Positions 1-64,000 of a DNA stretch of 64,000 nucleotides are shown in pieces. The first letter of the stretch is position 1, and each line of letters starts with the position of its first letter. This DNA comes from Candidatus Sungiibacteriota bacterium. GTDB taxonomy: Bacteria; Patescibacteriota; Minisyncoccia; Sungbacterales; HO2-52-23. Position numbers and translations under genes: made by a program. Under the pieces are notes generated by a model. That model was not told the origin of the DNA. It saw only the letters and a program-made list of their open reading frames with translations, and searched no databases. The DNA is taken from the NCBI GenBank assembly GCA_016181585.1, contig JACOYX010000017.1:8317-72316 (forward strand), in the 5' to 3' direction.

Positions 1-264
1 CAAATCGCATGCGGCATAGATGTCCTGATCCTCCGCCTCGGCACGGAAAAATTTTTTACCGAGAGAAAGATTTGCTTCTATCCGATGAATATCCCCTTTG
101 AGATGATGTTTTGTCGTACGCTCCGCTTCGAGATCGAGAATCGGAAGATCGTGCATTACGACTTCCTTCAAAAGTTTTTTCAAAGGTTTCAGGATTTTTT
201 TCTCGATGTATTCTGCAAGAGCAGGAGTGATTTCTAAATTTTTTTTGCGGATGGCAACTCTCAT
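1..264 (-). CDS. hpf: Ribosome hibernation promoting factor (HPF/RaiA family), partial; 3' end lies beyond window start
   Basis: Minus-strand frame from ATG at 264 translates MRVAIRKKNLEITPALAEYIEKKILKPLKKLLKEV..., typical HPF/YfiA N-terminus; no stop before position 1. Not in ORF track because it is incomplete. Confidence 0.6.
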   Translation of the reverse strand, partial: MRVAIRKKNLEITPALAEYIEKKILKPLKKLLKEVVMHDLPILDLEAERTTKHHLKGDIHRIEANLSLGKKFFRAEAEDQDIYAACDL

Positions 265-454
265 GCATTATATAACTCAATTTGTTAAAATTTTGTTTCG
301 CTTTTTCCAAAAATTTTTTTGAAATAAAAAATTTTTGGAAAAAACATTTTGCTTTTCCATTATTTACGAAAGAAAAAAATTCGTCAAGTGTCCCGATAGC
401 AACTCTTCGTCAATTTTACCGATATCGGAGTAATTTTGAATAAATTTTGCAAAA

Positions 455-492
455 AATAAAATCCCGCAAAGCGGGATACTTTAATTTTTTAT
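455..492. terminator. Bidirectional rho-independent terminator hairpin (atcccgc-aaa-gcgggat) with T-runs on both sides
   Basis: Stem atcccgc/gcgggat at 461-477, flanked by aaaaaataaa and ttaatttttt; lies 3' of murB on the minus strand. Confidence 0.6.
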
Positions 493-540
493 TTTGCCTA
501 GCCTGTCGTCAACAGACGGCTTAAGTATATTTACATTTTA
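491..540. repeat. Intergenic repeat family H, copy 1 (attttgcctagcct...cagacggcttaag.atatttacatttta)
   Basis: Near-identical ends to the element at 54393-54472; both sit immediately 3' of a minus-strand gene stop. Confidence 0.6.
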
Positions 541-548
541 CGTTTTTT

Positions 549-1490
549 TTAGAATCCTACATACTGTATCTCTTCTTCGAGGGAAATGCCAAATTTTCTT
601 CGCACCGTGTCTTTTACCAAAGAAATCAGCATTACCACTTCTTCCGCCGTAGCCTCTCCTTCATTTACAAAATAATTGGCATGCTTCGGTGAAACATACA
701 CGCGCCCAACACGCTTACCCTTCAGCTCTGCGCGATCAATCAAAAGCGAAGCGGGAATATTTTCAGAATCACGAAAATCCGCAAGCCATGGAAACCGCTC
801 GATCAATTCAGTTTTTTGTATGCCCTTCTGCGCCCATGTAATATTTTTAAAAATACATCCGCATGATTTCGTGCCGATATCCTGCTTTGCCGCGCGCGCT
901 TCGGTGATTTCCCGAATCCTCTGTTGAATTTGCTTTTGATCTCCTTTTTTTAAAGAAAGAACTGCGGAAAGAATTATCCACTCCGGATGTTTTTTAAAAA
1001 CCGAATGCCGATATGAAAATTCGCAACGTGCCGCTTCCAACATGCGGCGTTCAGCGCTCAAAGAATCAAATATCTCCACATTCTCCACAACATCTTTCAT
1101 TGCGCCGCCAAAACACCCCGCATTGCCGCGAATGGAACCGCCTATGCTTCCCGGAACGCCGATCCCCCACTCAAAACCGGAAAGTCCGGCTTTGGCAGAA
1201 GCCACTACCGCACGCGCGGTCATTACCCCCGCGTCGGTGAAAAGTTTTTCTCCTTCGGTACGCACCTCGCCTCCACCTACATGAATCGCAACCCCAAAAA
1301 AACCTTTGTCTGCAACCAACATATTGGAACCGGCTCCGATAATTACAAACGGCAGGTGTTTTTCTTTTGCGAATACAATCGCCTCGATGATATCTTCACT
1401 TTTTTTGACATCGGCAAAGAAGCGGGCATGTCCTCCGATTTTATAAACAGTATACAAAGCAAGCGAAATATTTTCTTTGATCTTGATCAT
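549..1490 (-). CDS. murB: UDP-N-acetylenolpyruvoylglucosamine reductase MurB
   Basis: FAD-binding MurB motifs (IGGHARFF..., VIIGAGSNML, C-terminal MurB domain). Start moved to internal ATG (MIKIKENISL...); the 46 upstream codons in the ORF track read as non-homologous extension. Confidence 0.85.
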   Translation of the reverse strand: MIKIKENISLALYTVYKIGGHARFFADVKKSEDIIEAIVFAKEKHLPFVIIGAGSNMLVADKGFFGVAIHVGGGEVRTEGEKLFTDAGVMTARAVVASAKAGLSGFEWGIGVPGSIGGSIRGNAGCFGGAMKDVVENVEIFDSLSAERRMLEAARCEFSYRHSVFKKHPEWIILSAVLSLKKGDQKQIQQRIREITEARAAKQDIGTKSCGCIFKNITWAQKGIQKTELIERFPWLADFRDSENIPASLLIDRAELKGKRVGRVYVSPKHANYFVNEGEATAEEVVMLISLVKDTVRRKFGISLEEEIQYVGF

Positions 1491-1696
1491 ATAAGTTTCT
1501 TTGAAAAAGCCATTAAGACCTCTTTTAGTTATAGTATTGCAACCGGTATCAAGTTGCAATATAGTTGAAAGGAAAAGTATCCGCCCGATCGGACAATCAT
1601 TCGTTTCTGCGACATGAGGAGCTGGCATTCACATAAGGACAAATTGTTGGAATCTACCCTCCTCGTGTCCCAGAAGCAAGTGATATTATAACGAAC

Positions 1697-5184: not shown

Positions 5185-5212
5185 AAAAGACGTACGAAAG
5201 TACGTTTTTTAT
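5185..5212 (+). terminator. Rho-independent terminator (agacgtac-gaaa-gtacgt + T6)
   Basis: Palindromic stem followed by tttttt; closes the small-gene cassette. Confidence 0.6.
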
Positions 5213-5241
5213 AATATTCTTAAATCACAAGCGTTTGCGTA

Positions 5242-5399
5242 GGGAAACCCGCGGATTTTTCGCGGGGTTACGAAGTTGTGCAAGCATGGTTCCCGATATT
5301 CATTATTTTCTCTATAAATAAAAATCGGGATTGCACAACTTCGACCTTTTGTTTGCTCACTGGAGCAAACAAAAAAAGCGAAAAATCTGTGGGTTTCCC
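5242..5399. repeat. Structured repeat family F, copy 1: nested inverted repeats around core catggttcccgatattcatt...aaatcgggattg
   Basis: Outer IR gggaaaccc.c.gatttttcg; second IR gaagttgtgcaa/ttgcacaacttc; inner stem tcccgat/atcggga; side hairpin tttgctcactggagcaaa. Homologous copies at 45823-45957 and 7526-7589 with compensatory changes. Confidence 0.7.
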
Positions 5400-5416
5400 T
5401 ACAGGAACATACTAAA

Positions 5417-6331: not shown

Positions 6332-6342
6332 TTTAATAATTA

Positions 6343-6488
6343 GACCTACTGCGTAAAGATTTTCGTAACGAAATTTCTTAATTTAGAGACAAAATCGTTG
6401 AATAAATTTCGAGGCCTATCGGCTTAGATAAGTCAAGTTTGGCCGAAATTAAGAAATTGCAGTAGAAGTATCTTTACGCAGTAGGTCT
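6343..6488. repeat. Palindromic repeat family A, copy 1 (terminal IR agacctactgcgtaaag...ctttacgcagtaggtct)
   Basis: 17-bp terminal inverted repeats enclosing about 110 bp of imperfectly palindromic sequence; near-identical to the copy at 51264-51426. Confidence 0.75.
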
Positions 6489-6489
6489 A

Positions 6490-7413
6490 TTATTTATTAT
6501 TTTTCTTTTTTTGAGACTCAACTTTCCTCTTAACCCATTCGTGGTCGTGTACACTCACATCCTCAAGCGTCAGCCCTTGGCTCAAAAGCAACGCCTCATT
6601 GAACGCGCGATCCTGTTTCAAAAGATTTGCCGCATCGCTCATGCAATTTATCTCAAGCGAAGCGATCAATCCGTCAAGATCTTTGGGTAAGCAAAACCCG
6701 CCGAAACCTTTGTACCCTCCATGCGCCACATCGAGATGCGAATCGCCAATGCGAAAATCCGCCGCCAGGCCGCACCGCACGTTTTCGTAATCCCCCCCGA
6801 GGCTTGCCGCAAGCATCGCCAAAGAATTTGCAAAATTTATTTTCCGCGCAAAGTGAATATTACCCCCGTATTTTATAATCTCCGCTTCCGTTGCGGTTAT
6901 TTTCAACGAGCGATAGGTGTTGAGGCCTCCTGGCGACATAAAAGGCGCGCGCGGAAGCAGAGAGAGAGCGAGATAAGCCGCATCAATGCTTTGATTGGTA
7001 AACCCAACGATCTGGCGATCGGGACGGATAAAATCCTCCCATGCACGCCGCTCCGTTAAAAATTCAGGATTGAAGAGAAACTTGTGATGCGGATATTCCT
7101 CCTGAAATTTTTCAGTAGTTCCCGGCGGAACAGTGGATTTTATCACGATAATTTTCTCTCCCTTAATTTTTGAGATCGCGTTCTTTACAAAATTAATATT
7201 AGCCGAACCGTCTTCCGAACGAGGTGTCGGCACTGAAATAAAAACAATATCAGCATTGCTCACACGGTCGTTAAAGCCTTTTTTAGGGTCAATGTCATAC
7301 AAAAAAAGATCCTTGCCGCGCTTGTACTCCTGATACTCTTCAAAATACCGCGCAAGCGGACCTCCCACCATGCCAATCCCCACAATGCCGATTTTAATCT
7401 TTTTATTTTTCAT
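6490..7413 (-). CDS. UDP-glucose/GDP-mannose dehydrogenase family protein, short form lacking the C-terminal UDP-binding domain
   Basis: GIVGIGMVGG NAD-binding motif; catalytic GFGGFCLPKD; only 307 aa; stop lies 2 nt from the family-A repeat. Confidence 0.6.
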   Translation of the reverse strand: MKNKKIKIGIVGIGMVGGPLARYFEEYQEYKRGKDLFLYDIDPKKGFNDRVSNADIVFISVPTPRSEDGSANINFVKNAISKIKGEKIIVIKSTVPPGTTEKFQEEYPHHKFLFNPEFLTERRAWEDFIRPDRQIVGFTNQSIDAAYLALSLLPRAPFMSPGGLNTYRSLKITATEAEIIKYGGNIHFARKINFANSLAMLAASLGGDYENVRCGLAADFRIGDSHLDVAHGGYKGFGGFCLPKDLDGLIASLEINCMSDAANLLKQDRAFNEALLLSQGLTLEDVSVHDHEWVKRKVESQKKKNNK

Positions 7414-7525
7414 ACGTTAAATCTTACAGACAAACATAGAACGCCCTGTCTTCGATCGAGGTTACCAACAGTAACAACAGAGTTTTGCATCGAAGCGAGG
7501 CGTTATACTTTCGAGACAATTTGGA

Positions 7526-7589
7526 AAAGCGGCAGCTTGGTTCCCGCTATTCTTATAATTCTTTATAAATAATAGCGGGACGCCGCTTT
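7526..7589. repeat. Structured repeat family F, copy 3 (core only)
   Basis: aaagcggc-agcttggttcccgctatt...aatagcgggacgccgcttt; inner stem tcccgctatt/aatagcggga covaries with tcccgat/atcggga of copies 1 and 2. Confidence 0.5.
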
Positions 7590-7653
7590 GATAGTTAGCG
7601 AGGCCGCCGCGGGAAGCGGCCGAGCGTGTCGAGAAAGCATAATGCTGAGCGAA

Positions 7654-9950: not shown

Positions 9951-9985
9951 TAAAAACTCCGGAAAATCCGGAGTTTTATTTTTTA
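9951..9985. terminator. Hairpin terminator aaaactccgg-aaaa-tccggagtttt + T-run
   Basis: 9-bp stem followed by attttttac. Confidence 0.55.
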
Positions 9986-11144: not shown

Positions 11145-12260
11145 ATGAAAAAACTCCTTATCGTCGCCGACTCCCCTGGTTCCGCAGAATTCATTGCGCC
11201 CGTCATTCCCTTGCTTCAGAAAAAAACAAAGATCGTGGTCGTGACAGTCAACACTTCTACCGAAGCGCCGTATACGATATTAAAAAAATATAAGCCATTA
11301 CGATGCGATCATGAAAAAGATGCGGAGGCATTGTTTCGAAAAATAAAACCCGATATTCTGCTCGCGGGGACAAGCTCGCTCATCCCCGGCCCATTTGTCA
11401 ATAACTGCTTCATCCGCCTCATGCACCGAGAGCAAAAACCGGTTTTAGTCTTTCAAGACTATTGGGCAAACCACCGCTGGCCGCAAAACAAAGAAACTCT
11501 GCATTTGTGGAACGCCGTATTTGTGCCTGACGAACTTGCAAAAAAGTTTTTGCAGGAAGATGCTTTTTCGGGAAATATCATAACCACCGGCAATCCTGCG
11601 TTTGATAAATTCACAACTGCCAATCCCGCCGCGATTCGCAATGCATTGCGCAAGGAGCTCAACATACGCGGATATGAGTTTGTCATACTCTACGCCGGCA
11701 CCGGCACGCCGCAAGCATGGCAGGAAGATGAAGCAACATTTCGTTTTCTCGCTAATGCATTGCAGGAATTTTTTGCGAACACGCCGAATATCGTTTTTAT
11801 TCCCCGCTCTCACCCGCGCGATGAAGAAAAAAATCGGTATCAAAAACTGGCACCTCGTTTGCGGATGTATAACCCAGATCACGGAAAAAACATCTATTCT
11901 ACCGACAATCTACTCTTAATGGCAGATTGTATAATCAGCATGTATTCAACCGCGCTTCTGCACGCCTGTTTTCTCAAAATACCGGCCATAAGCATTCTTC
12001 TTCCCGATGCGGGCCGCGCGCGCCTTCGAAAAATCAATCTCGATAATTTTCCTCCCAATACCGTTGGCGCGACTATTGGTGTTTACAAAGAATCTACCAA
12101 GGACCTTGTCGCCGCATTCGACGCCGTTAAAAATGACCCGCACTATCGCCAAAAGATAACCAACGCGCAAACGCAATTTTTCTCTTTGGCACAGAACAAA
12201 AAATCAGCCACGGAAACTGCGGCCGATGCGATCACTTCTTTTATTAGACCTGCTGCGTAA
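11145..12260 (+). CDS. Hypothetical GT-B-fold-like protein, paralogue of 9983-10975
   Basis: 371 aa; similar architecture (..LLMADCIISMYSTALLHACFLKIPAI..); stop codon lies within the family-A repeat. Confidence 0.4.
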   Translation: MKKLLIVADSPGSAEFIAPVIPLLQKKTKIVVVTVNTSTEAPYTILKKYKPLRCDHEKDAEALFRKIKPDILLAGTSSLIPGPFVNNCFIRLMHREQKPVLVFQDYWANHRWPQNKETLHLWNAVFVPDELAKKFLQEDAFSGNIITTGNPAFDKFTTANPAAIRNALRKELNIRGYEFVILYAGTGTPQAWQEDEATFRFLANALQEFFANTPNIVFIPRSHPRDEEKNRYQKLAPRLRMYNPDHGKNIYSTDNLLLMADCIISMYSTALLHACFLKIPAISILLPDAGRARLRKINLDNFPPNTVGATIGVYKESTKDLVAAFDAVKNDPHYRQKITNAQTQFFSLAQNKKSATETAADAITSFIRPAA

Positions 12261-12360
12261 AAATTTTTCTACTGCAATTTCAATTCGCACCAAAATCGCT
12301 TCAGCAATTTTATCTCAAAATTCTGAAATTTCGCTATGAAAATCTTTACGCAGTAGGTCT
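12246..12360. repeat. Palindromic repeat family A, copy 2
   Basis: agacctgctgcgtaaaaa ... ctttacgcagtaggtct; supplies stop codons for both flanking genes. Confidence 0.7.
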
Positions 12361-13860: not shown

Positions 13861-13968
13861 GGGTTTAGCGACTGATGTTATTAAAACGCATCAAAACCAT
13901 AACACGTTTCAGAGAAAAATAAAAACCCCGCATGATATATGCTGGGGCTCTTTCAGATTATATGCAAA

Positions 13969-15045: not shown

Positions 15046-15076
15046 AGCTACTTAGCGTTGAAACCGCTAAGTAGCT
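15046..15076. terminator. 12-bp perfect-stem hairpin agctacttagcg-ttgaaac-cgctaagtagct
   Basis: Lies 3' of the minus-strand cupin gene 15086-15511. Confidence 0.5.
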
Positions 15077-16299: not shown

Positions 16300-16383
16300 A
16301 AGTAAACCTTACAAGATTAAAACGATTTATTCAAATGTTTTGTAATATTTTAAAATCGGCGCTATAAACTAGCGCCGATTTAT

Positions 16384-17313: not shown

Positions 17314-17364
17314 TGTTAGACCCTTTCTTAAAAAAAGGAGGACTGGCTTGTCCTCCTTAGTTAC

Positions 17365-18357: not shown

Positions 18358-18439
18358 CTAGCATTACCTCCCTTATAATTTTGCTCTTAAGAGCTAATAA
18401 AACTAGTACATTATATAAAGATTACTGTCAAGACACAAA

Positions 18440-18480
18440 TAAAAAACCTTACGAGACATGGTCTCGTAAGGTTTTTTATT
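18440..18480. terminator. Bidirectional terminator: 13-bp-stem hairpin aaccttacgagac-atg-gtctcgtaaggtt flanked by A/T runs
   Basis: aaaaaa...tttttt flanks a perfect stem. Confidence 0.65.
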
Positions 18481-19658: not shown

Positions 19659-19714
19659 ATATCTCTCGCCTTAACACTAAAAATTGGTCTAATACTGAAA
19701 TTCACAAAGGCTGT

Positions 19715-19907
19715 CTCGGCTGCTATGATTTCAGACAATTGGATCGTCGGATTGGATTGGTTCCGCGTACTCGCGGGACAATCCGACGATCCATTAGAGA
19801 GGCCGCCGCCGGGTCAAAAGCACTGCTTTTGACGGGCAGTACTCTACCCCTGGATTTTGCTGTCGGAAGCAAAATCGGCGAAAGGGTCTGAAATCATAGC
19901 AGCCGAG
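19715..19907. repeat. Structured intergenic element with 22-bp perfect terminal inverted repeats (ctcggctgctatgatttcagac / gtctgaaatcatagcagccgag) and three internal hairpins, copy 1
   Basis: Interior holds a 14-bp-stem hairpin (ggatcgtcggattg...caatccgacgatcc) with apical ttccgcgtactcgcgg, plus hairpins gtcaaaagc/gcttttgac and gattttgct/gcaaaatc. Confidence 0.75.
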
Positions 19908-19927
19908 GCAACCGCCCCCTCGACAAC

Positions 19928-21283: not shown

Positions 21284-21343
21284 TTTCTTCCTTCATCACA
21301 GACCCCCACATGTGAGAAAATGCCATCGAAAAAGAATGCGGCC

Positions 21344-21476
21344 TCGGCACACTCTGTTTGCGACAATTGGACCCGCAAGTTTGCATGGTTTCCGCGCACT
21401 CGCGGAAAAACTTGCGGGTCCCTTAACAAATTCCGCGCTGGCGGAATTTGTCGGGTCGCAAACAGAGTGTGCCGAG
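21344..21476. repeat. Structured intergenic element with 22-bp perfect terminal inverted repeats (ctcggcacactctgtttgcgac / gtcgcaaacagagtgtgccgag), copy 2
   Basis: Same architecture as 19715-19907: aattgga start, 14-bp stem gacccgcaagttt/aaacttgcgggtc around ttccgcgcactcgcgg, then hairpin aattccgc-gctg-gcggaatt. The stems differ by compensatory changes. Confidence 0.75.
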
Positions 21477-21502
21477 AAAGCCGCAACCCATAACTACAAA
21501 AC

Positions 21503-22354: not shown

Positions 22355-22448
22355 ACTGTAGGCCATTATTCACCAAACCCTGTTTTACCTACTTGACTAT
22401 TACTTAGCTTAGTTATACTTTATTCTTAAGATCTTTCTTGGAGAAGAT

Positions 22449-22676
22449 ATGAACAGAAAATATGGTGCACTGCCTCCTCCTGAAGCAGCTTGGCAAATTG
22501 GCAAAACAGCTAAATTTATCACGCGAATTAATGAAATTAGCAGACGGTTGGAAGAATATCATAAGCATCTCAATGACCCTTATACTTTCTACCCGGACGA
22601 AGTTGATGCTGTTCGTGAATTAAAAACACACGCAGCTGAAGATATCGAATTTTTGCTTGGTGAAATTAGAAAGTAA
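22449..22676 (+). CDS. Small hypothetical protein (75 aa)
   Basis: Upstream TTGACT...TATACT promoter-like boxes and GGAGAAG RBS. Confidence 0.45.
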   Translation: MNRKYGALPPPEAAWQIGKTAKFITRINEISRRLEEYHKHLNDPYTFYPDEVDAVRELKTHAAEDIEFLLGEIRK

Positions 22677-22984
22677 ACCGCTCTTTTTTTCATTTCCTCA
22701 TTGCCCGTGACACCTCTGCTTTTCCAATAACCAACCGCAGGGATTTTCCTTATTTTAAGCCACCTTTTCAGCTACTTGACTTCTCAACAAAGAAATGATA
22801 GCGTGTAAATGTCTGATGGGACAGAGGTTGGAATTGTCTACAGACAGTTTGCCTTAAAGCGCCGACCTCTCGGGACTACCCATCCAGCCCAATTGGGACG
22901 AATGCCGCGATAGACGCGGGGTAGAGAGGAAACGCGACCATCCCATCAGGCATGCTCAGCTCTTTGGAGTTGAGCTTTTCTTTG

Positions 22985-23033
22985 TCCTCACTTTCCATGA
23001 CACCTCTGCTTTTTCAATAACCAACCGCAGGCC
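22985..23033. repeat. Repeat family G (cctcactttccatgacacctctgcttttcaataaccaaccgcagg); four copies at 22692-22750, 22985-23033, 23563-23620 and 23990-24050
   Basis: Copies 2 and 4 share an identical 23-mer. On the minus strand it reads gaggtgtcATGgaaagtgagga.aaa and forms the RBS/start of the NUDIX gene; copy 3 encodes the NUDIX C-terminus. Confidence 0.6.
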
Positions 23034-23520: not shown

Positions 23521-23556
23521 TGCGCCCGGTTCACTGGAATCGGGCCTTTTTCTTTA
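23521..23556 (+). terminator. Rho-independent terminator gcccgg-ttcactggaat-cgggc + T-run
   Basis: Stem-loop followed by ctttttcttt. Confidence 0.5.
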
Positions 23557-23583
23557 TATTATCTCCCATGACACTTTTGCTCT

Positions 23584-23982: not shown

Positions 23983-24012
23983 ATTTTTTATCCTCACTTT
24001 CCATGACACCTC

Positions 24013-24687
24013 TTATATTTCTTTCCACTTCCTCACTTCCTCATTTGCCTTTTTATATCTCTCCTCGGTTCCCGCATCGATCCAATATCCTTTATGCAAA
24101 AAAACATTCAGTTCGCCGCTCTCGGCAAGCCGCGGAAAAATCTCTTTTTCGATCATAAATTCTTCCGGTGTGTTTTCAAACACAGTCGGCGACAAAAGAT
24201 AAAATCCGCAATTCACATACCCCGTAATTTTTTCCTGCGGTTTTTCGAGAAACTCTTTTATCTTGCCATTATCAATGTTTAAAAGCCCAAAATCCCGCGC
24301 ATCGCTCACCTCCACACACATGATAGTATTGGGCAAAGAGCGCATCATCGCGGAAATATCCACATCAGTTAAACCATCTCCATTGAGCACCAAAAATGGT
24401 TCTTTCAAATCACGACTCGCGAATTTAATTCCCCCGCCCGTACCCAAAGGCCTCGGTTCCACCACATACTCAAATTTTCCCGGCCACTTCGCCTCACAAA
24501 ATGCGATAACCTGATCTGCCTTATGATACAAACTCAAGCGAATGTCGAAGATGCCATGCTTTTGCAATAAATTTACTTGATGCTCCAAAATCGTAACTCC
24601 ACCGACTTCAGCAAGCGGCTTTGGCCTCTCTCCCGTAATTTTTGCAAGCCGGGTGCCGAAACCACCGGCTAAAATAATTGCTTTCAT
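24013..24687 (-). CDS. Sugar-phosphate nucleotidyltransferase (NTP_transferase family)
   Basis: MKAIILAGGFGTRL signature; 224 aa; the start codon lies inside the left 22-bp TIR of the MITE-like element. Confidence 0.75.
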   Translation of the reverse strand: MKAIILAGGFGTRLAKITGERPKPLAEVGGVTILEHQVNLLQKHGIFDIRLSLYHKADQVIAFCEAKWPGKFEYVVEPRPLGTGGGIKFASRDLKEPFLVLNGDGLTDVDISAMMRSLPNTIMCVEVSDARDFGLLNIDNGKIKEFLEKPQEKITGYVNCGFYLLSPTVFENTPEEFMIEKEIFPRLAESGELNVFLHKGYWIDAGTEERYKKANEEVRKWKEI

Positions 24688-25142
24688 CCCACACATAACT
24701 TACACAAGACTATATTGAAGACACTCTTTAAGTCTCCGTAAACCCTGCGCATTTAATTGGTCTGTTGCCGAATAGCACTTTGACTACAATTGCATAAATT
24801 CGGTCAAATTTTTCAAAAAATTTCTTGGCTTATCTTCCAGATAGGCCGCAAAATTTTTTGAAAAATTTGCCTCGAATTTCTGCAACTTCGCGACGTAGGC
24901 TATTCGGCAACAGACCCTTAATTTTAAAGATTGTTCTCTCTTATAAGCATCATCTTTTTACACATAAGCTTCATAGTACACAAGTCGCCATGGCAAATAC
25001 TTTTTTGTGTACGACGACTTGCCACTGTTATGCTGATATAGTCTTCTACGAAGATCACCTGTACCCTACGTACAAACCATCAACAGTTTCAGATTTGAGC
25101 AAATACACATAATACATGTTTGTGTAAGTTATGTGTGGGATG
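24685..25142. mobile_element. MITE-like element: 458 bp bounded by 22-bp perfect terminal inverted repeats (catcccacacataacttacaca / tgtgtaagttatgtgtgggatg); non-coding interior built from mosaic repeat modules
   Basis: TIRs at 24685-24706 and 25121-25142. Interior carries module D (ggtctgttgccgaatagc ... gctattcggcaacagacc) and module C (cttggcttatcttccagataggccgcaaaa), both shared with 40596-40775, 42021-42477 and 57660-57893. The TIRs supply the start codon of 24013-24687 and the last 5 codons plus stop of 25129-25857. Confidence 0.6.
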
Positions 25143-25857
25143 AATTACTTTTTCTCAATAACAACTCCGCAATCTCAAAATCAATCGCGTGATCAATATC
25201 CACCGTCGGCCTTTTAAGAAAATACGGCAAAACCTTACCACCAATGACTGAATTTTTCTCCATAATTGTACTATAACGCACCACACCGATATCTGCAGTG
25301 GTCTGATACACTTTGGGCAATGACTGACGAGGTGCGGTATGCCAATCTTTCATGCCAGGCATATCTGAAACAAAGGGGTCAATAAAATCTCCCGCTATCT
25401 TCCACATTTTAAAGGGTGGCTTCGATGGCTCTTCTATCGAACGCACACTATCGGCTTCCGGAAATTTTTCCAAAAGCTCAATGGACTCATCAATCTCCTC
25501 CGCGGTACGCAAAGGCCCGGTCGGCCGCAAATGCACTAGAATATCCGGCTGATATTTTTCATGATCCTTCAGCCACTCCAGTGCGTGTAAAAAAACCGGC
25601 GTATCCGGCGTCAAATCTTCAGCTAAATTTGCGGGACGCAAAAAAGGCACCTCGACGCCATATTTTCTTGCGATGTCGGCAATCTCTTCATTGTCGGTAG
25701 ACACAATCACGCGATCAATATATTTTGATTTTTTTGCCACACCAATGCTCCACGCAAGCAACGGTTTACCCGCAAGTAATTGTATGTTTTTTTTCGGTAT
25801 CCCCTTTGATCCCCCCCTCGCAGGGATGAGAGCTAATATCTTTTTTCTATTTATCAT
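25129..25857 (-). CDS. Acylneuraminate cytidylyltransferase family (second CMP-nonulosonic acid synthetase)
   Basis: ILALIPARGGSKGIPKKN signature; start moved to MINRKK; last 5 codons lie in the TIR. Confidence 0.75.
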   Translation of the reverse strand: MINRKKILALIPARGGSKGIPKKNIQLLAGKPLLAWSIGVAKKSKYIDRVIVSTDNEEIADIARKYGVEVPFLRPANLAEDLTPDTPVFLHALEWLKDHEKYQPDILVHLRPTGPLRTAEEIDESIELLEKFPEADSVRSIEEPSKPPFKMWKIAGDFIDPFVSDMPGMKDWHTAPRQSLPKVYQTTADIGVVRYSTIMEKNSVIGGKVLPYFLKRPTVDIDHAIDFEIAELLLRKSNSSHT

Positions 25858-34048: not shown

Positions 34049-34065
34049 TCATACTCATGAATTTA

Positions 34066-34971: not shown

Positions 34972-35050
34972 ATTATAGAACCTCCCTTCTCAAGGACCTA
35001 CTGCAGAGCTTAAATTAAAATAGTTACCTTGTCAAGGTAACTATGAAAAC

Positions 35051-40595: not shown

Positions 40596-40775
40596 TTCTA
40601 GCAATATAAAAATGAAAAATGACGGTTAAAATTTAAAATTTCGCATTTTACATTGTCATTTTTCATTTTTATATTAGACCCACTGATTAAAGATAAATCT
40701 ACTGCAATTTCATAATTTCGGCCAAAATCGTCTCAAAATTTATTGGCTTACCTTACAGGTAGGCCGCAAATTTTT
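40596..40775. repeat. Mosaic intergenic repeat: 21-bp perfect IR (aatataaaaatgaaaaatgac / gtcatttttcatttttatatt) + family-A-like arm (agacccactgattaaagat) + module C
   Basis: Module B (gtcatttttcattttt) recurs at 54370-54390 and 55545-55565; module C (ttggcttaccttacaggtaggccgcaaatttttgaa) recurs at 24860-24890, 42225-42255 and 57795-57835 (reverse). Confidence 0.65.
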
Positions 40776-42020: not shown

Positions 42021-42477
42021 GTTGATAATTTAAAAGATATCTTTACGTATAGGTCTATTTAATGGGTTTGTTGCCGAATATCGCTTATGAGCTACGATTG
42101 CATAAATTCGGGTAAATCGCATCGCGATTTACGGGAAATTTAGCGAAGCCGGGTATTCCCGTGCGAAGCGTAAAATTTCCCCGGCTTTTGCTCAAGGAAG
42201 CAAAAGAATTTTTCAAAAAAATTCTTGGCTTATCTCAGCATATAGGCCTTAAACGGTCGATCAGTCCCAGACCGTTCGTACCGAACGGCATGGACCAAGT
42301 CAGGTTTTAGACCGCGTAGTTTGTGTGAGTATTTGCCTCGTCCAGACATGTCGGGATCGCTTCAAAGGCTATTCGGCAACAGTCCCTTAAAGCAGATTGA
42401 GCCTTTTTATACTAAAAAGAATTCAAAATAAAGGCAAATAGAAAAACCCTTCTGAAAGGGTTTTTCTCCAGAAACAG
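42021..42477. repeat. 457-bp non-coding spacer built from repeat modules A-like, D, C and E
   Basis: tctttacgtataggtct; gttgccgaata...ctattcggcaacag; cttggcttatctcagcatataggcc; ggccttaaacggtcgatcagtcccagaccgttcgtaccgaacgg...caggttttagacc (reverse complement of 57700-57790). Confidence 0.6.
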
Positions 42478-44895: not shown

Positions 44896-45795
44896 TCACA
44901 ATATCTCTGGCTTCTCTTCTTTTTTAGTGTCCCTTTCGGCAACAAATTTTTTTACTTGTTCGTACCACATCGGCTTCGGCCACAAAAGATTGCCATTTTC
45001 ATCATAGACCGGAAGTAAAACTTTTTCTTCCTGCATAATTTCAATTATTTCTTTTTCAAACTCTACTGAATTTCCGTGCAAACCAAGACTTTTGACACCA
45101 CCAAAGTCTCTTGCTACCACAATCCCTTTGAAAAATCGCGGCGACACACGCGAAAAGATTTCAAAACCGTGTTCAGTATCAGCCTTCGGAAAACCATTTT
45201 CATCTATAATATTATGCTGTTTTAGTCTCTCAAATTCTGGATGTTCCAATATACGCGGATCACCGGGTCGTAACCCTTTAAAATACTTTTTCCAGATTTC
45301 TTGCATACCCTCTCCTGCATTCCAAAATGATTTTACGTTTTTGTTCTCTTTATTGCGCTCATCCGGAGAAATTTCTTTAAATGACGATGGATCAAAAATA
45401 ATTCCTATGGAACCGGATAACCACCAATATGATTTCTTTATCTCAATTGGGTTTTGATCAGAAGTCCTTTTAAAGGAGTTTGCTCTGCCGACAATGTTAA
45501 AACACAACCACAAACCACCTTCTCTTTTCCGCGTAGCTTCCGCCCATGGCTCCTTCCATGGACCTGAATGCAGACCCGTACCAAGAATACCTTCATGGAG
45601 CACTTTTGGAAGTTTTCCTAATGAATTTCCTCTCTCACCATACGCACCTAAAACATGATACGCCGTTCCTTTTTTATTAATATCCTGTACTTTTTCCATA
45701 ATCTTCTCGATCACTTCCGGAGAAAGTTCTTTCTCCCTTTCTTTTCCTTCATCAGCCCTCTCCACAGATTTATTTTCAAATTTTGATTTTTCCAT
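44896..45795 (-). CDS. Hypothetical protein
   Basis: About 300 aa; Lys/Glu-rich; no recognised motif; start moved to MEKSKF to exclude the part overlapping repeat F2. Confidence 0.4.
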   Translation of the reverse strand: MEKSKFENKSVERADEGKEREKELSPEVIEKIMEKVQDINKKGTAYHVLGAYGERGNSLGKLPKVLHEGILGTGLHSGPWKEPWAEATRKREGGLWLCFNIVGRANSFKRTSDQNPIEIKKSYWWLSGSIGIIFDPSSFKEISPDERNKENKNVKSFWNAGEGMQEIWKKYFKGLRPGDPRILEHPEFERLKQHNIIDENGFPKADTEHGFEIFSRVSPRFFKGIVVARDFGGVKSLGLHGNSVEFEKEIIEIMQEEKVLLPVYDENGNLLWPKPMWYEQVKKFVAERDTKKEEKPEIL

Positions 45796-45822
45796 GGCAA
45801 TAGCACGAGAAAGGTCACTATT

Positions 45823-45957
45823 GATTTTTCGCGGGGTTTTGAAGTTTCGCAAGCATGGTTCCCGATATTCATTATTTTATTTTTATAAATGAAAATCGGG
45901 ATTGCGAAACTTCACCCTTCAATTTGCTCGCTGGAGCAAATTGAAAAAGCGAAAATT
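45823..45957. repeat. Structured repeat family F, copy 2
   Basis: gaagtttcgcaa-gcatggttcccgatattcatt...aaatcgggat-tgcgaaacttc; side hairpin atttgctcgctggagcaaat; compensatory changes relative to copy 1. Confidence 0.7.
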
Positions 45958-49894: not shown

Positions 49895-50116
49895 GATAAC
49901 AGTGTTACAAAGGCGACATTGAAAAAACTATGAGACCATTACTAAACTCTTTTTTCTCAGCGAGATCGCAGTTCGCGCGGGAAACTTGAATAATGAGGAA
50001 AGACTATTAGGATAATAATCTGATGAAGGCGGATGTTTTGGGGCCGACGCTTTGCCGTGCTGTCGAGTGCGAAATTATGCCGGTCATAAGCAGAAAAAGG
50101 AGTTTTGTAATGGTCT

Positions 50117-51097
50117 CTATATCCACTTCTGATTATCAAGAGTCCATTGTATCGTGTGCTTGAGCGATTCTTCAAAGGTCATCGGCATATGCCAGCCAAG
50201 CGTTGCAAGTTTTGATCCGTCCAAAGCATACCGAAGATCATGCCCCGGGCGCGACGAATGAAAATCAACCAATTCATATTCCAAAGGCTTCCCCACAACC
50301 CGCGCAATGGACTGCGCCATCGAAAGATTGTCCACTTCCCGTTCACCCGCGATGTTGTATTTCTCGCGCTGTTTTGCATGGGCAAGTAAAAACAAAAGCG
50401 CTGAAGAAACATTTTGCGCATGAATCCATGATCTCCTCCCTGCCTGTGTTTTTGTTGGATCGGCATGAATCGTTACTTTCTCTCTCGCTAGCAAACTTTT
50501 GATAACTTTGGGGATAAATTTTTCTCGATATTGGCGATCGCCAAAAATATTCATGGTGTGCGTAATGAAAAGCGGAAGTTTATAGGTATTTGCATAGGAC
50601 AACGCAAGCTCTTCACCCCCCGCTTTCGTTGCGGAATACGGATTCGCTGAATTATAGCGATCCCACTCTTTATAGGAAACGCCTTCCTCTGCCGGCCCAA
50701 ATATCTCGTCCGTGCTGAAATAGACAAACCAAGTAAGATGAGGAAGAGACCGCGCAAAATTTAGCATATGCATGGTTCCAACCACATTGGACATAACAAA
50801 CGGCTCCGGGTTTTCAATACTGCGATCAACATGCGTTTCCGCTCCCATGTGGACAATATAATCCACCTCGCCGACTTCATGGCGCACGCCCTCGCTCAGC
50901 GATTGAGAAAAATCGCATCCCAAAACCAAAACACGTTTGTTGTCGAGCGCCGCAATATCGCGAAGCCGATCCAGCCCGTGCGACGCATAGGTCAATTTAT
51001 CGATAATCACCACGTCCCAATCGGTATTTTTCAGGACATAATCCACAAAGTGATGCCCCATAAACCCACATCCGCCGGTGATAAGAATTCTTTTCAT
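50117..51097 (-). CDS. rmlB: dTDP-glucose 4,6-dehydratase
   Basis: ILITGGCGFMGHHF; YSATKAGGE catalytic YxxxK; 326 aa. Confidence 0.85.
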   Translation of the reverse strand: MKRILITGGCGFMGHHFVDYVLKNTDWDVVIIDKLTYASHGLDRLRDIAALDNKRVLVLGCDFSQSLSEGVRHEVGEVDYIVHMGAETHVDRSIENPEPFVMSNVVGTMHMLNFARSLPHLTWFVYFSTDEIFGPAEEGVSYKEWDRYNSANPYSATKAGGEELALSYANTYKLPLFITHTMNIFGDRQYREKFIPKVIKSLLAREKVTIHADPTKTQAGRRSWIHAQNVSSALLFLLAHAKQREKYNIAGEREVDNLSMAQSIARVVGKPLEYELVDFHSSRPGHDLRYALDGSKLATLGWHMPMTFEESLKHTIQWTLDNQKWI

Positions 51098-51263: not shown

Positions 51264-51426
51264 AGACCTACTGCGTAAAGATTTTCGTAACGAAATTTCT
51301 TAATTTAGAGACAAAATCGTTGAATAAATTTCGAGGCCTATCGGGCTTAGATAAGTCAAGAAATTTTGAAGCGATTTTGGCCTAAATTAAGAAATTGCAG
51401 TAGAAGTATCTTTACGCAGTAGGTCT
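51264..51426. repeat. Palindromic repeat family A, copy 3 (first 95 nt identical to copy 1 at 6343)
   Basis: agacctactgcgtaaagattttcgtaacgaaatttcttaatttagagacaaaatcgttgaataaatttcgaggcctatcgg...ctttacgcagtaggtct. Confidence 0.75.
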
Positions 51427-54298: not shown

Positions 54299-54392
54299 GT
54301 CTAAAAAAGTTCAAAATGAAAATTTTTGGTATTCTTTTCACTCATAAAATTTATACAATACGTCCCGATTTATCGGGACACAACAATTTTTC

Positions 54393-54472
54393 ATTTTGCC
54401 TAGCCTATTCGCATTAGACCGTCTGCGGCAGTCAGACCAGGTCACAGACGGCTTAAGGATATTTACATTTTA
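54393..54472. repeat. Intergenic repeat family H, copy 2, preceded by module B
   Basis: attttgcctagcct...gaccgtctg...cagacggcttaaggatatttacatttta; abuts the stop of 54473-55444. Confidence 0.6.
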
Positions 54473-55444
54473 TTAGCTAAATCCTCCATCCCAAATATAT
54501 TCTTTTTCTTTTACTTTGAATGAAGAAGTTTTTTCTACGCCCTTTTTCATCCTCAAAAGCACTCCCGCGCACTTCCAATAGAGCTTAGCCGGCCAATACA
54601 AAAAAGGATGTTCCTTGAGAAATTTATTTATGCGGAATTTATAATACCACATGCGCGGAACGGAACGCTTCATCACCGTATAAATAAGATTCCGGCTCTT
54701 TTTATGCCACCGCTCATACGCTTCAGGAGACATCGGAGACTGAATATGGTGATACATCTTCACTCTGCAAAACTTTACATTGGCGCCGTTTTTAATAAAT
54801 GCCAGCACATACTCCATATCACCCTCCCATGTTGACATAAGCCCGCCCAACGCATGTGATTTGCGCCGCACAAAATGTCCAAAAGAAGACGCCGCGCGAT
54901 AGCGAAAAACATCAGTAATATCTTTTCCATAATTTACCCCTGGAGGAAGATAAGAAGTAACAATCTTTCCCGCCTTAGCAGTGTTCTCCCCTGAAAGATA
55001 TGCGGCAGTATCTGTGCCATATATTTCTTTTGTTCCGCCGCATACCAGCATATCCACCTCCGGATGCTGTTCCATTACCTCCGCCGCCTTTTCCATCGCG
55101 TCGCGATAATAGATATCGTCGTCCAAAAGCAGTTTGATATATTTCCCGCTCGAGAGCAGGATTCCTTTATTGCACGCCTCGTTCGCACAACGGTCTTTCT
55201 CGGAAATGAAAATATCCACAATATCCGCGTATTTTTGCACCACTTTTTTTGTGCCGTCTTCCGACGCGCCGTCAACGACAATCAATTCATCTTGCGGCCC
55301 CACAAGTTCCCTTGCACGCGTTAAAAAATCATCCAGAATGGCGGCGCGGTTTTTGGTAATTACGATATATGAAATCCTTTTGGTAGAATGCGCATCAAAG
55401 GAAGTGTTTGGAAATATTTTTTTTTGTGTATTAATTTCTGACAT
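54473..55444 (-). CDS. GT2 glycosyltransferase; paralogue of 58997-59875
   Basis: SYIVITKNRA; VVDGASEDGT; DDD. Confidence 0.7.
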   Translation of the reverse strand: MSEINTQKKIFPNTSFDAHSTKRISYIVITKNRAAILDDFLTRARELVGPQDELIVVDGASEDGTKKVVQKYADIVDIFISEKDRCANEACNKGILLSSGKYIKLLLDDDIYYRDAMEKAAEVMEQHPEVDMLVCGGTKEIYGTDTAAYLSGENTAKAGKIVTSYLPPGVNYGKDITDVFRYRAASSFGHFVRRKSHALGGLMSTWEGDMEYVLAFIKNGANVKFCRVKMYHHIQSPMSPEAYERWHKKSRNLIYTVMKRSVPRMWYYKFRINKFLKEHPFLYWPAKLYWKCAGVLLRMKKGVEKTSSFKVKEKEYIWDGGFS

Positions 55445-55477
55445 TGCAAAATTTAAAAATCAAAATTAAAAATGATG

Positions 55478-55560
55478 CTTCGGGCGTCATCCCGGCGGAA
55501 GCTGGGATCCAAGTTCTCTGGATCCCGCATCTAGTGCGGGATGACACCGCTGTGTCATTT
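55478..55560. repeat. Nested hairpin element (gtcatcccg...cgggatgac enclosing gggatcca-agttctc-tggatccc), followed by module B
   Basis: 9-bp outer stem, 8-bp inner perfect stem, additional gcttc...gaagc pairing. Confidence 0.5.
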
Positions 55561-57659: not shown

Positions 57660-57893
57660 AGATCTGCTGATTAAAGATTTTCGTTACGATCCCGACATAT
57701 CGGGACAGAATTTCGAGACAAAATCGCTTAACAAATTTTGCGGTCTAAAACCTGACCTGCTCCGTACCGTTCGGTATGAACGGTCTGGGACGTTTCGGCC
57801 GTTTAAGGCCTATCTGTAAGGTAAGCCAAAAAGTTTTGAAGTGATTTTGGAGCGAATTGAAATTGCAGCAGAATTACCTTTACGCAGTAGGTC
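57660..57893. repeat. Palindromic repeat family A, copy 4 (long mosaic variant carrying modules E and C)
   Basis: agatctgctgattaaag...ctttacgcagtaggtca; internal hairpin tcccgacatatcgggac; modules E and C in reverse orientation relative to 42021-42477. Confidence 0.65.
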
Positions 57894-57909
57894 AATTAAA
57901 TAAAATATA

Positions 57910-59884: not shown

Positions 59885-59924
59885 AGACCTACTGCGCAAA
59901 GAATTATCTTTGCGCAGTAGGTCT
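59885..59924. repeat. Minimal family-A palindrome: 17-bp perfect-stem hairpin agacctactgcgcaaag-aattat-ctttgcgcagtaggtct
   Basis: Fills nearly the whole 54-nt spacer between two minus-strand genes. Confidence 0.7.
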
Positions 59925-61867: not shown

Positions 61868-61906
61868 ATCCTGTTGATATAAAAGTATAGGGATATTTTA
61901 AAAATA

Positions 61907-62842
61907 TCAAGAGAGACGAAACATGAATCTTGAATCCGTGTCATCCACCATAATCTCTTTCACTTTTCTGCAAATTTTCTCTGCAGTAGGTGGAAGATTA
62001 TCGAGTTGCGGCGCAAACCCCGCCGCACGTTCTTCCAAACCAAACACACGAATGTTTTTCCCGGTCTTCTGCATCAAATCAAATGCAATGCACTTTGCCG
62101 CGCCATTTTCAAAATCACCATCAAGCACCAAACCGCCGTGCCGAGAACTTTCGAGCGCACGATTCACGTCGGGTGTTGCCACAAACGGCTTTAGCCATGT
62201 GAGATGCACAACATTGCAAGTAATTCCCTCTCCCGCAAGCATATCCACTGCCTTTACTGCTTCGAGTCGCGTGGAGGAAATCGGAAAAAGCGTAAAATCG
62301 GCTTCTGAGTGTACAATATTTTCCATTTCATAATCAATCGGAAAACTTCTGCGATGTTCGCTTATGTACATCGGATCATCATGGGCCATAAAAAATTCCC
62401 ATCCGGCACGCCATTCGTTGGGAGTCATTGGTGCATAAACAAACATGCCGGGCATCCTCGTAAATAAGCTGTGGTGCGACCCCCCGGCAACGGGCCCAAT
62501 GGCTCCGTCCATCGCAATAGAACGCACAAAAATAGGACAGGGAATTCCCCACATGTCTTTCGATTTTGCCGCATAATTCACAATATGCGCGGCATTAAAC
62601 CACTGAAATCCTTGATAACGGACAATATAAATAGGCCGGCGTCCGGCAAGCGCCATTCCCACCGCAATACCGCCACCTGCGACATCCGCCATGGAGAGCT
62701 CAACCAATCCGTCTTCATCACCCATTTCAGGCACTGTTCCTCCTACCCAACCTACCGCAGTCAAGCATTGTCCCAATGCCAAACCATTGTTTTTAAGAAG
62801 ATGTTCGCGCGTTATTTGTTTAATTGTTTCTGCTACGTTCAT
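61907..62842 (-). CDS. Transketolase C-terminal section / E1-beta-like TPP-enzyme subunit
   Basis: 311 aa; Pyr and C-terminal transketolase-like domains. Confidence 0.65.
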   Translation of the reverse strand: MNVAETIKQITREHLLKNNGLALGQCLTAVGWVGGTVPEMGDEDGLVELSMADVAGGGIAVGMALAGRRPIYIVRYQGFQWFNAAHIVNYAAKSKDMWGIPCPIFVRSIAMDGAIGPVAGGSHHSLFTRMPGMFVYAPMTPNEWRAGWEFFMAHDDPMYISEHRRSFPIDYEMENIVHSEADFTLFPISSTRLEAVKAVDMLAGEGITCNVVHLTWLKPFVATPDVNRALESSRHGGLVLDGDFENGAAKCIAFDLMQKTGKNIRVFGLEERAAGFAPQLDNLPPTAEKICRKVKEIMVDDTDSRFMFRLS

Positions 62843-62851
62843 ATAAAAAGT

Positions 62852-63745
62852 TTATATTGTACCGAGTGCCAGTTGCGTTTCCCATGCCCTGTCCATAGAA
62901 TCCCGCGCATCTTCTTCTATCGACGTTATTTTTTCGTTCATACCCACTTTCTGCAATTCTTCTTTTATCAAAGCAAACCTGTCCCACTCGGGCGGACCAT
63001 CCACACCTGTACCATTATGCCAGAGATGGCGCACCACATGGATATTCATAAATATCGGCATTGCGCCTCCGAATTTCCGCATATGATGCACAATTAACCA
63101 CGGATTATCCGTAATTTCGACAGCCTGTATACCGAAAGCGGCCGCAATGTCGGTCATTTTCCAGTTTCTGCGCACCGCAACTTTAGTCAGAATCGAAAGC
63201 CCATTATCCATACAAACAAATGCCATAGGAAGTTTTTTGTGCGCAGCATATCCCAAAGCGCCAAGCACATAATCCTCTTCCGCGGATGCATCTCCCATCA
63301 CCGCAAGAGTCCGTTTATTTTTTGCAAAAGCATAACCGACTGCGATAGGAATTTGCGTTCCCATGAGCCCGTCATGACCAAACATATTAATCGCCGGCGA
63401 ATGAATAGAGGCCGATCCTCCCATGCCTTTTGCACAACCTGTCGGCCGATGAAGTAATTCATCAATAAGCGCTTCCACACTCCCTCCATAAGCAAGGTAG
63501 AGGTCGTGGCACCGGTGCTGTCCAAAAATGGCTGCATCAGGATACACCAGAGAAAGCGCCGCGGCGACAGACTCCTGTCCCACCGATAAGTAAATCGGCA
63601 TCTTTATAAGCCCTTTATCAAATGCTTTTTTTACATTCAATTCAAAATAACGAATCATGCAGATTCGTTTGAATATCTCCAGTATGTCCTGCTCGCTCAA
63701 TTCCCGTATTACGTTTTCAATTGCTCCGGTATTTTGAGAACGCAT
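62852..63745 (-). CDS. Transketolase N-terminal section / E1-alpha-like TPP-binding subunit
   Basis: TPP motif (AVMGDASAEEDYVLGALGYAAHKKLPMAFVCMDNG); 297 aa. Confidence 0.65.
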   Translation of the reverse strand: MRSQNTGAIENVIRELSEQDILEIFKRICMIRYFELNVKKAFDKGLIKMPIYLSVGQESVAAALSLVYPDAAIFGQHRCHDLYLAYGGSVEALIDELLHRPTGCAKGMGGSASIHSPAINMFGHDGLMGTQIPIAVGYAFAKNKRTLAVMGDASAEEDYVLGALGYAAHKKLPMAFVCMDNGLSILTKVAVRRNWKMTDIAAAFGIQAVEITDNPWLIVHHMRKFGGAMPIFMNIHVVRHLWHNGTGVDGPPEWDRFALIKEELQKVGMNEKITSIEEDARDSMDRAWETQLALGTI

Positions 63746-63759
63746 AACTTATGTAAAAA

Positions 63760-64000
63760 TTATCGCAACGGCACACGCTCCCGTTTTGCATTTTTACCGG
63801 GAATAAATTCAACTCCTTTATTCAAATAAGTAATTTGCATAATTGGACGCGGGCGGTCTTTGGTAAGGTTGGGGTAAGAGCCATGCACCACGTTTCCGTT
63901 AAGAATAAGCATGCCGCCCTTTTTGACATATACCGTAGATTCTTTTCCCTTATGCTTTGCAGGAAGAAGAACTGTATTGCCGGGATTGGTACCCGGCTTT
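63760..64000 (-). CDS. PhyH-like Fe(II)/2OG oxygenase, C-terminal fragment; 5' part lies beyond window end
   Basis: Minus-strand translation ...KPGTNPGNTVLLPAKHKGKESTVYVKKGGMLILNGNVVHGSYPNLTKDRPR... ends at TAA 63760. Confidence 0.4.
   Translation of the reverse strand, partial: KPGTNPGNTVLLPAKHKGKESTVYVKKGGMLILNGNVVHGSYPNLTKDRPRPIMQITYLNKGVEFIPGKNAKRERVPLR

Follow-up and report, generated by a model that had tools for sequence, protein, structure and literature searches.

Palindromic, probably mobile elements in the intergenic spacers of a surface-glycan locus of a Candidatus Sungiibacteriota bacterium

The DNA analysed here is a 64,000-nt stretch of the Candidatus Sungiibacteriota assembly GCA_016181585.1 (contig JACOYX010000017.1, positions 8,317–72,316), which we refer to as the window, and which contains approximately 58 open reading frames (ORFs) identified by a Pfam search as a surface-glycan locus. 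Between 5.4 and 63.7 kb all of the genes lie on the minus strand with the sole exception of the plus-strand gene at 11145–12260, and this co-directional layout is as described in the original prediction, which had been made from the sequence alone. The left end of the window encodes MurB (with relatives amongst Sungbacteria and Parcubacteria proteins), GT4 and Bac_transf proteins, and the locus also includes one Wzy_C-TPR protein, epimerases or dehydratases, methyltransferases, a carbamoyltransferase, RmlC and two E1-dehydrogenase alpha/beta pairs. Three Glyphos_transf (TagF-like), three NeuB and two CTP_transf_3 (NeuA) proteins were found, in agreement with the paralog counts given earlier, but there are four GT2 proteins rather than the two first recognised. 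Glycan genes extend at least 8 kb past the right end of the window in a contig from the same sample (L050:1–8592), and a single co-directional glycan locus occupies more than 66 kb of the genome of this member of the Sungbacteria, which belong to the candidate phyla radiation (CPR). Our subject is the DNA between these genes, which in our judgement probably holds two kinds of sequence, intrinsic terminators on the one hand and several families of small, non-coding palindromic elements on the other, the latter resembling miniature inverted-repeat transposable elements (MITEs) and inserted into an otherwise stable gene order.

It had been claimed that nearly every spacer in the array is structured. 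When the transcribed strand of each spacer of at least 45 nt (n = 38) was folded and compared with dinucleotide shuffles, using a z-score of −3 as the cut-off, 25 of the 38 fell below this value and several were below −8, compared to 3 of 60 length-matched windows taken from coding sequence. The claim stands for this majority only, as the other 13 spacers had no significant structure, approximately 20 additional gene junctions are shorter than 45 nt or overlapping and too small for any element, and approximately ten of the 25 structured spacers are plain intrinsic terminators in which a hairpin is followed by a T-run. Terminator-like sites are more frequent than in shuffled sequence (43, 44 and 35 found versus 24.6, 23.9 and 25.6). 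Only about ten spacers qualify as intrinsic terminators, and the elements which we refer to below as the F, S and P55 types are left unexplained by termination. Repeat searches recovered the shared modules and long perfect inverted repeats that had been proposed, with perfect arms of 17–22 bp at 19715/19907, 21343/21476, 40603/40675, 24759/24916 and 28666/28765, and a module common to 42.2 and 57.7 kb was also found where expected (42239–42324 and 57731–57816; 86 nt, opposite orientation, 85% complementary). Elements do adjoin start and stop codons, as had been noticed, and those we list total approximately 3.2 kb or 4.9% of the window (Table 1). Rfam searches of the window and three loci produced no matches at the gathering threshold and only far-sub-threshold hairpin look-alikes at E ≤ 5, and a tRNA scan found nothing relevant.

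The F1 elements are typically some 40–250 nt long (42–356 nt over the paired copies) with a mode of 161–163 nt and have no internal ORF. They end in TAGACCTACTGCGTAAAGAT and ATCTTTACGCAGTAGGTCTA, with AGACC...GGTCT as the element proper, and the 19-nt terminal inverted repeats (TIRs), AGACCTACTGCGTAAAGAT and ATCTTTACGCAGTAGGTCT, hardly vary in an alignment of 54 copies. Sizes form a series of approximately 42/74/115/161/203/246 nt, and this series, together with inserts at the centre of the element, reflects nested palindromes or central deletions. There are six copies in the window, at 6.34, 12.25, 40.68 (a half copy), 51.26, 57.66 and 59.88 kb, the first of which fills the spacer separating a UDP-glucose dehydrogenase (UGDH)-like gene from an epimerase gene, while the last makes up most of a 54-nt spacer (fold z-score −13.3) and is terminator-like on the minus strand.

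F1 copies carry the signature of insertion. In a set of 113 non-redundant copies, identical 3-bp flanks were found in 84, compared to 20.2 ± 3.5 in a control in which the flanks were re-paired, and no copy in this set had a 4–6-bp duplication. The commonest target-site duplications (TSDs) are ATT (31), AAT (20), AGT (7), ATA (6) and ACT (5), and the variable outermost base (T/A) of 'TAGACC' changes along with the flank, showing it to be part of the duplication. Filled and empty versions of the same site were identified twice: L038 has an F1 copy which L048 lacks, with flanks that are 95% identical, and the window copy at 6342–6488 is located in a 158-nt spacer for which the equivalent in the related locus L177 is 16 nt long and without the element (the genes here are approximately 79% identical). 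F1 therefore inserts into AT-rich ANT trinucleotides with a 3-bp duplication, and being small and non-coding, with TIRs, a duplication of fixed length, many dispersed copies and insertion polymorphism, it is a true MITE. Flank complementarity was the same as in the control, and hence F1 does not target hairpin loops, a possibility we had considered.

Almost all F1 copies are intergenic (111 of the 113), and their ends are often no more than 6 nt from a stop codon, which they sometimes provide, or 8–12 nt from a start codon. The elements had been suggested to act as terminators or mRNA stabilisers, but relative to co-directional neighbours F1 is found in the sense and antisense orientations equally (21 copies each), and this argues against any such built-in role. 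We note that the final 15 nt and stop codon of the plus-strand ORF 11145–12260 are supplied by an F1 copy (12246–12260), and that next to eight F1 copies elsewhere the adjacent ORF likewise ends 15 nt within the element.

A scan for the pattern AGACCTRCTGCGTAAAGAT over one genome per species returned 47 loci, mostly as plus/minus pairs 141 nt apart, of which 43 were in CPR metagenome-assembled genomes (MAGs) assigned to the Sungbacteria, Staskawiczbacteria, Jorgensenbacteria and the Parcubacteria group, or labelled Saccharibacteria. The four non-CPR matches (Anaerolineae, Bacteroidales, Rhodothermaceae and Rhizobium) each comprise one site within what appears to be a coding sequence and were discounted, as approximately nine chance matches are expected. 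A metagenome scan added at least 120 loci, nearly all of them originating in groundwater projects, and at least 95 further paired copies, again with a modal length of 161–163 nt, and in total more than 140 paired copies are now known from Parcubacteria MAGs and groundwater metagenomes. At least 24 of the F1 copies are on 18 loci of a single Sungbacteria MAG (MHQM01), and no F1 terminus was found in viral contigs. As the repeats occur well outside the window, with relatives of the S and P55 elements also found elsewhere, the modules are clearly not a peculiarity confined to this locus, which was the outcome that would have told against the original prediction.

The alignment of 54 copies also shows that F1 is asymmetric, with TTTCGTAGCGAAAT, itself a small palindrome, in one arm and ATTGCAGCAGAA in the other. 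These two segments face each other as a conserved internal loop, and apart from this loop the hairpin is unbroken. Compensatory change, in which both sides are altered and the pair is kept, was seen at 32 of 50 predicted pairs, although the copies share ancestry and these counts are not independent, and in one subfamily both termini are altered together, from CGTAAAGAT/ATCTTTACG to ATTAAATAG/TATTTAAT. G–T cells outnumber A–C cells in the alignment by 163 to 22, again amongst copies of shared ancestry. The two arms would appear to co-evolve such that the element remains a long hairpin. The arm motif TTCGTCACGAAAT / TTTCGTTGCGAAAT is also present within hairpins of quite different outer sequence at 30740–30782 and in L054:5100–5215, which suggests that there may be further F-type subfamilies with other termini.

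The interiors of a second type, F2, align nearly full-length with F1 copies from other genomes, and on this basis the F2 elements are diverged relatives of F1; a likeness of their termini to IS6/IS26 ends was dropped for this reason. The junction orthologous to the F2 spacer at 24.7 kb is 2 nt long in L054 compared to 432 nt in the window, and the second F2 copy is followed by a plain terminator at 42440–42467. The 74-nt F5 module (42242–42315 and 57740–57813, inverted and 88% identical) occupies the same internal site, AGGCC^GC, in one F2 copy and one F1 copy, and an F5-like insert is also found within an F1 copy in the metagenome contig L122. In L033 an unrelated insert with 15-nt TIRs is located at the F1 centre, in the same place as F5. 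The core of the P55 palindrome recurs in an unrelated metagenome contig, L154:3689–3790, within a different outer stem, and P55 may also be mobile.

The S elements follow a common plan in which an outer stem, at most 22 bp long and differing in sequence between copies, encloses a first hairpin with the loop CCAGYG or TTCCYGC, a second hairpin that combines a lower stem with a GC hairpin at its apex and has ACCATGC, ACCAATC or ACCAAGCT as a bulge on the 3' side, and finally the motif CCAATTGTC before the closing arm. The stems are almost wholly Watson–Crick paired. Five copies are found in the window (E5, E7, E19, E21 and E45), a sixth just past it in L050 and a seventh in L177, and all seven are in the sense orientation. 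The eight families that were first proposed collapse into fewer lineages, as F2 is subsumed under F1, and the two '22-bp-TIR' elements, the 5.3/45.9-kb pair and the 7.5-kb element share this single architecture. It should be noted that where E45 overlaps the nominal TTG start of ORF 44896–45852, the true start is more likely to be a downstream ATG. We had considered whether the 5.3/45.9-kb repeat was a duplicated gene 5' end and rejected this, as the ATG common to both copies is followed at 5.3 kb by an ORF of just 20 codons, and a downstream ATG is the likelier start of the 45.8-kb gene. Three viral matches to an S-family 18-mer proved to be one phage sequence without the S architecture.

Comparison with relatives shows that the S elements are lineage-specific. 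The TagF-like gene between E21 and E19 has 76–79% identical orthologs in three assemblies (L054, L055 and L056) which, like the window, have the gene order CTP_transf_3, NTP_transferase, methyltransferase, TagF-like and Epimerase_2. The E21 spacer, however, is 219 nt in the window compared to 14–40 nt in L054 and L055, and the TagF-to-epimerase junction containing E19 is 269 nt, whereas in the three assemblies it varies between an overlap of 4 nt and a gap of 38 nt. In L177 the epimerase ortholog has no E5 on its downstream side, and the spacer preceding the UGDH-like gene, occupied by E7 in the window, contains a different S element (30–101) which is 78% identical to E21 and without hairpin 2. 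At matching spacers, then, which could be compared for four of the five window copies, E5, E19 and E21 are absent and E7 is different, and S would represent a second family of palindromes that is either mobile or subject to rapid turnover. More generally, in relatives with 76–84% identical orthologs the gene order is unchanged, around the TagF-like gene in the three assemblies and from MurB to UGDH in L177, and the spacers range from a 4-nt overlap to 40 nt compared to 158–432 nt in the window. As the relatives differ in spacer content only, the observed variation is one of element insertion into an otherwise stable order.

Table 1. Palindromic elements, repeats and intrinsic terminators located in the window (F2 and the composite spacer are nested; positions are those of the 64,000-nt window).
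Feature	Position	Strand	Characteristics
F1 MITE, 147 nt	6342..6488	+	TIRs and alignment; TSD ATT at 6339-6341 and 6489-6491
F1 MITE, 115-nt short form	12246..12360	-	TSD ATT
Half F1 (R arm + central hairpin)	40676..40775	-	Variant terminus AGACCCACTGATTAAAGAT; abuts stop of gene 40779-42020
F1 MITE, 163 nt	51264..51426	+	TSD ATT; ~90% identical to the 6.4 kb copy, with one 88-nt stretch 99%
F1 MITE, 235 nt	57660..57894	+	Diverged left terminus; TSD ATT; nested F5 mini-palindrome ~57738-57813
Minimal F1 derivative, 40 nt	59885..59924		Both termini joined by a 4-nt loop
Composite spacer	24683..25144		Bounded by a 34-nt inverted repeat (24683-24716 / 25111-25144) overlapping both gene ends
F2 element	24759-24916		Perfectly complementary 18-nt termini GGTCTGTTGCCGAATAGC; inside the composite spacer 24683..25144
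Second F2 copy	42057..42392 (element 42063-42386)		Nested inserts including F5 42242-42315; termini GGTCTGTTGCCGAATAGC
S element E5	5213..5400	-	Outer stem 20/22 bp; hairpin 1 loop CCAGTG; hairpin 2 apical TCCCGAT..ATCGGGA, 3' bulge ACCATGC
S element E7	~7440..7640	-	Bulge ACCAAGCT, tail CCAAATTGTC
S element E19	19709..19913	-	Perfect 22-bp outer stem, four internal hairpins
S element E21	21337..21482	-	All 54 stem pairs Watson-Crick (22+11+14+7)
S element E45	45826..45955	-	85% identical to E5; overlaps nominal TTG start of ORF 44896-45852
P55 palindrome	55451..55556		z -8.4; core GTCATCCCGCACTrGATGCGGGATCCAGA
186-nt element	49932..50117		~26-nt inverted termini AGACC..GGTCT; abuts stop of gene 50117-51097; single window copy
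F4 repeat	483..540		Directly 3' of MurB; matches 54385-54472 (22 and 29 nt, 95-97%)
F4 repeat	54385..54472		Directly 3' of GT2 gene 54473-55444
AT-rich perfect palindrome, 21-nt arms	40603..40675		Adjoins half F1 copy
AT-rich perfect palindrome	302-343
Intrinsic terminator	18438..18480	-	20-bp stem, then T-run
Intrinsic terminators	9953-9977; ~13924-13948; 15046-15076; ~16352-16381; 17335-17358		Hairpin + T-run
Intrinsic terminators	34065-34095; 35020-35044; 5190-5205; 461-477		Hairpin + T-run

We suggest that F1 would be moved in trans by a DDE-type transposase making a 3-bp staggered cut, and the 3-bp duplication is compatible with transposases of this kind. Several observations weigh against treating all of these families simply as MITE-like mobile DNA. 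A perfect TSD is missing from 29 of the 113 F1 copies, and an autonomous relative having the same termini and a transposase gene was not found in approximately 170 loci (approximately 0.9 Mb) searched for TIR pairs 0.4–4 kb apart and for ORFs beside solo termini, where widely spaced F1 termini enclose ordinary genes (FtsQ, PMT, MFS and NeuB). In every one of the 54 aligned copies, the F1 strand that starts with the TTTCGTAGCGAAAT arm has a more stable fold than the opposite strand (−78.3 versus −64.5 kcal/mol), which is not predicted for a plain double-stranded-DNA transposon. In the case of S, no TSD was found in the seven copies, and there are only these seven, all in the sense orientation and with stem sequences that differ between them. 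This set of features is explained roughly as well by a strand-specific structured RNA, or by a single-stranded-DNA element, as by a classical MITE.

A second reading, which we consider unlikely, is that F1 and S are not ordinary MITEs of the double-stranded cut-and-paste type, and that their single-stranded fold is itself the selected functional form and is moved or maintained by a putative trans-acting enzyme common to the Parcubacteria. It draws on the strand bias of F1, the 32 compensated pairs, the uniform orientation of S and the lack of an autonomous copy in more than 170 loci, and if it were true, the elements would serve these episymbionts as a means of diversifying or insulating the expression of surface-glycan genes.

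The original prediction had also offered a comparison with the repetitive extragenic palindromes (REP) and bacterial interspersed mosaic elements (BIME) of the Proteobacteria, and here the description fits better than the mechanism. Dispersed intergenic palindromes are indeed present, outside the window as well as in it, with mosaic modules, compensated hairpins and a frequent position at gene 3' ends, as is the case for REP/BIME and for REPINs with their REP-associated tyrosine transposases (RAYTs). A host-maintained system of this type, in which palindromes spread by a single-copy domesticated HUH transposase are retained for a role in termination, mRNA 3'-end stabilisation or protein binding, would account for the compensatory changes that preserve long hairpins, the better folding of one strand, the terminator-like scores of certain copies, the sense orientation of S and the missing autonomous insertion sequence (IS). 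However, it is the less probable for F1 having clear TIRs and a 3-bp duplication, as REP/RAYT and other HUH systems are not known to make a target-site duplication, and filled and empty sites likewise point to transposition. F1 also has no preferred orientation, the orthologous spacers of relatives lack the elements, which are larger than REPs and nested, and no RAYT was seen, with no Y1_Tnp (Y1/HUH transposase) domain amongst the 58 window ORFs. We consider this explanation improbable.

Much the same standing is given to the suggestion that the S elements, if not the others, are structured cis-acting RNAs and not mobile DNA, and that they punctuate a long glycan transcript by processing, attenuation or insulation. 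In its favour, all seven copies are on the sense strand, the architecture is conserved (CCAGYG, ACCATGC and CCAATTGTC) with stems that remain paired though their sequences differ, and the window and L177 each have an S element in the spacer upstream of the UGDH-like gene. On the other hand, E19, E21 and E5 are missing from the orthologous spacers of relatives having the same genes, the bulge sequence varies, there is no Rfam match, and the perfect Watson–Crick stems with almost no G–U pairs are typical of DNA palindromes, and we doubt that such RNAs are what the S elements are.

The proposal that the repeats are recombination substrates through which strains would shuffle, duplicate or swap their glycan gene cassettes is very improbable, for although many genes are flanked by repeats, a NeuB-like gene has an F1 copy on either side in one unrelated metagenome contig (L110), and the shared F5 site in an F1 and an F2 copy suggests chimeras or inter-element exchange, the paralogous proteins of the locus are only 23–41% identical compared to 85–99% DNA identity between repeat copies, which makes the repeats far younger than the gene duplications, and four relatives keep the gene order and differ in spacer content alone. 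The L110 contig (Ga0105164_10091545, 1–1589) encodes a 323-aa protein and both of its ends are within F1 repeats; this may be a unit resembling a composite transposon, or no more than an assembly break. An integron attC array, which would have an intI gene, RYYYAAC/GTTRRRY cores at the cassette boundaries and one orientation throughout, was rejected as well, given that there is no recombinase in the window, the ends are AGACC..GGTCT, copies are found in both orientations and, elsewhere, beside housekeeping genes (core motifs were judged by eye).

As inserted MITE-like DNA, the elements can be compared with other known systems. The Correia elements of Neisseria (CREE/NEMIS) are non-coding, approximately 100–160 nt long with TIRs of approximately 20–26 bp, abundant and intergenic, and they duplicate TA (2 bp). 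F1 resembles them in size, TIRs, long hairpins, location near gene starts and ends and the lack of a known autonomous partner in the host, but differs in its 3-bp (ANT) duplication, unrelated sequence, CPR host and a distribution which spans several candidate phyla. ERIC/IRU and RUP/BOX-type repeats are imperfect palindromes of approximately 100–130 nt in transcribed intergenic regions with size variants due to indels, and F1 is similarly an imperfect palindrome, intergenic and variable in size through internal indels; sequences and hosts are unrelated, however, and F1 has a TSD and empty sites whereas the mobility of ERIC is poorly documented. The ISL2 group of IS5 has an 'ANT' target preference. 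F1 shares with Tourist-type MITEs, PIF/Harbinger and IS5 elements a 3-bp TSD in AT-rich trinucleotides and the short form with TIRs, and movement in trans would be a further likeness. Canonical Harbinger elements, which share a kinship with the IS5 family, produce TSDs of 3 bp (PMC12730594). In contrast to these groups, F1 is a near-complete hairpin and not a pair of TIRs around an unrelated interior, and in comparison with IS5 (ISL2 group), PIF and Harbinger only the 3-bp TSD matches, with no transposase found in the F1 loci.

The genomes of CPR bacteria (Patescibacteria) are approximately 1 Mb and usually seen as streamlined, and it is unexpected that approximately 5% of a surface-glycan locus of more than 66 kb should be young, mobile palindromic DNA. 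The locus may collect elements because it offers many separate AT-rich spacers in an accessory region which tolerates insertions, and the elements would not be needed for it to work. The 19-nt F1 ends are near-identical across MAGs that bear the labels Sungbacteria, Staskawiczbacteria, Jorgensenbacteria and Saccharibacteria, which implies a recent exchange between these lineages, either of DNA or of the mobilising enzyme. We found no prior description of MITEs, or of the F1 sequence, in CPR bacteria in a literature search of incomplete coverage. The repeats also fragment CPR assemblies, which matters for MAG quality and for the reading of CPR cell-surface loci, and the F1 terminus provides a simple tag for locating such contigs. 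We note here that short-read assemblies of the source sample (L001, L049 and L050; Logan SRR12113430) and of relatives (L054–L056) end in or beside palindromes, and that the contigs with close TagF-like orthologs are only 1.5–5 kb long.

Several other features of the locus were noted. The UGDH-like gene at 6490–7413 (UDP-glucose/GDP-mannose dehydrogenase-like) encodes 307 aa, without the start of the NAD-binding domain and without the C-terminal domain, and as an equally short form of 308 aa is conserved in the relative L177 (184–1110), the gene is unlikely to be a pseudogene. A 56-nt sequence is present as four direct repeats, 61–84% identical, at 22686–22741, 22976–23031, 23547–23602 and 23982–24037 with spacings of 290, 571 and 435 nt, each covering a GAGGTG-like motif and an ATG on the minus strand. 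We had considered these repeats as NUDIX pseudogenes, but tblastn gave no homology. The 647-nt 'spacer' at 22367–23013 likewise shows no homology to NUDIX and is missing from the relatives L054 and L055. Finally, the non-coding DNA upstream of MurB (1596–1725) is 89% identical to L177:7693–7825 while the flanking genes are only 77–80% identical; a 30-nt part of it is present twice in L177 (including L177:6510–6539), and it contains two TCCAAxTTGTCC motifs similar to the S-family tail.

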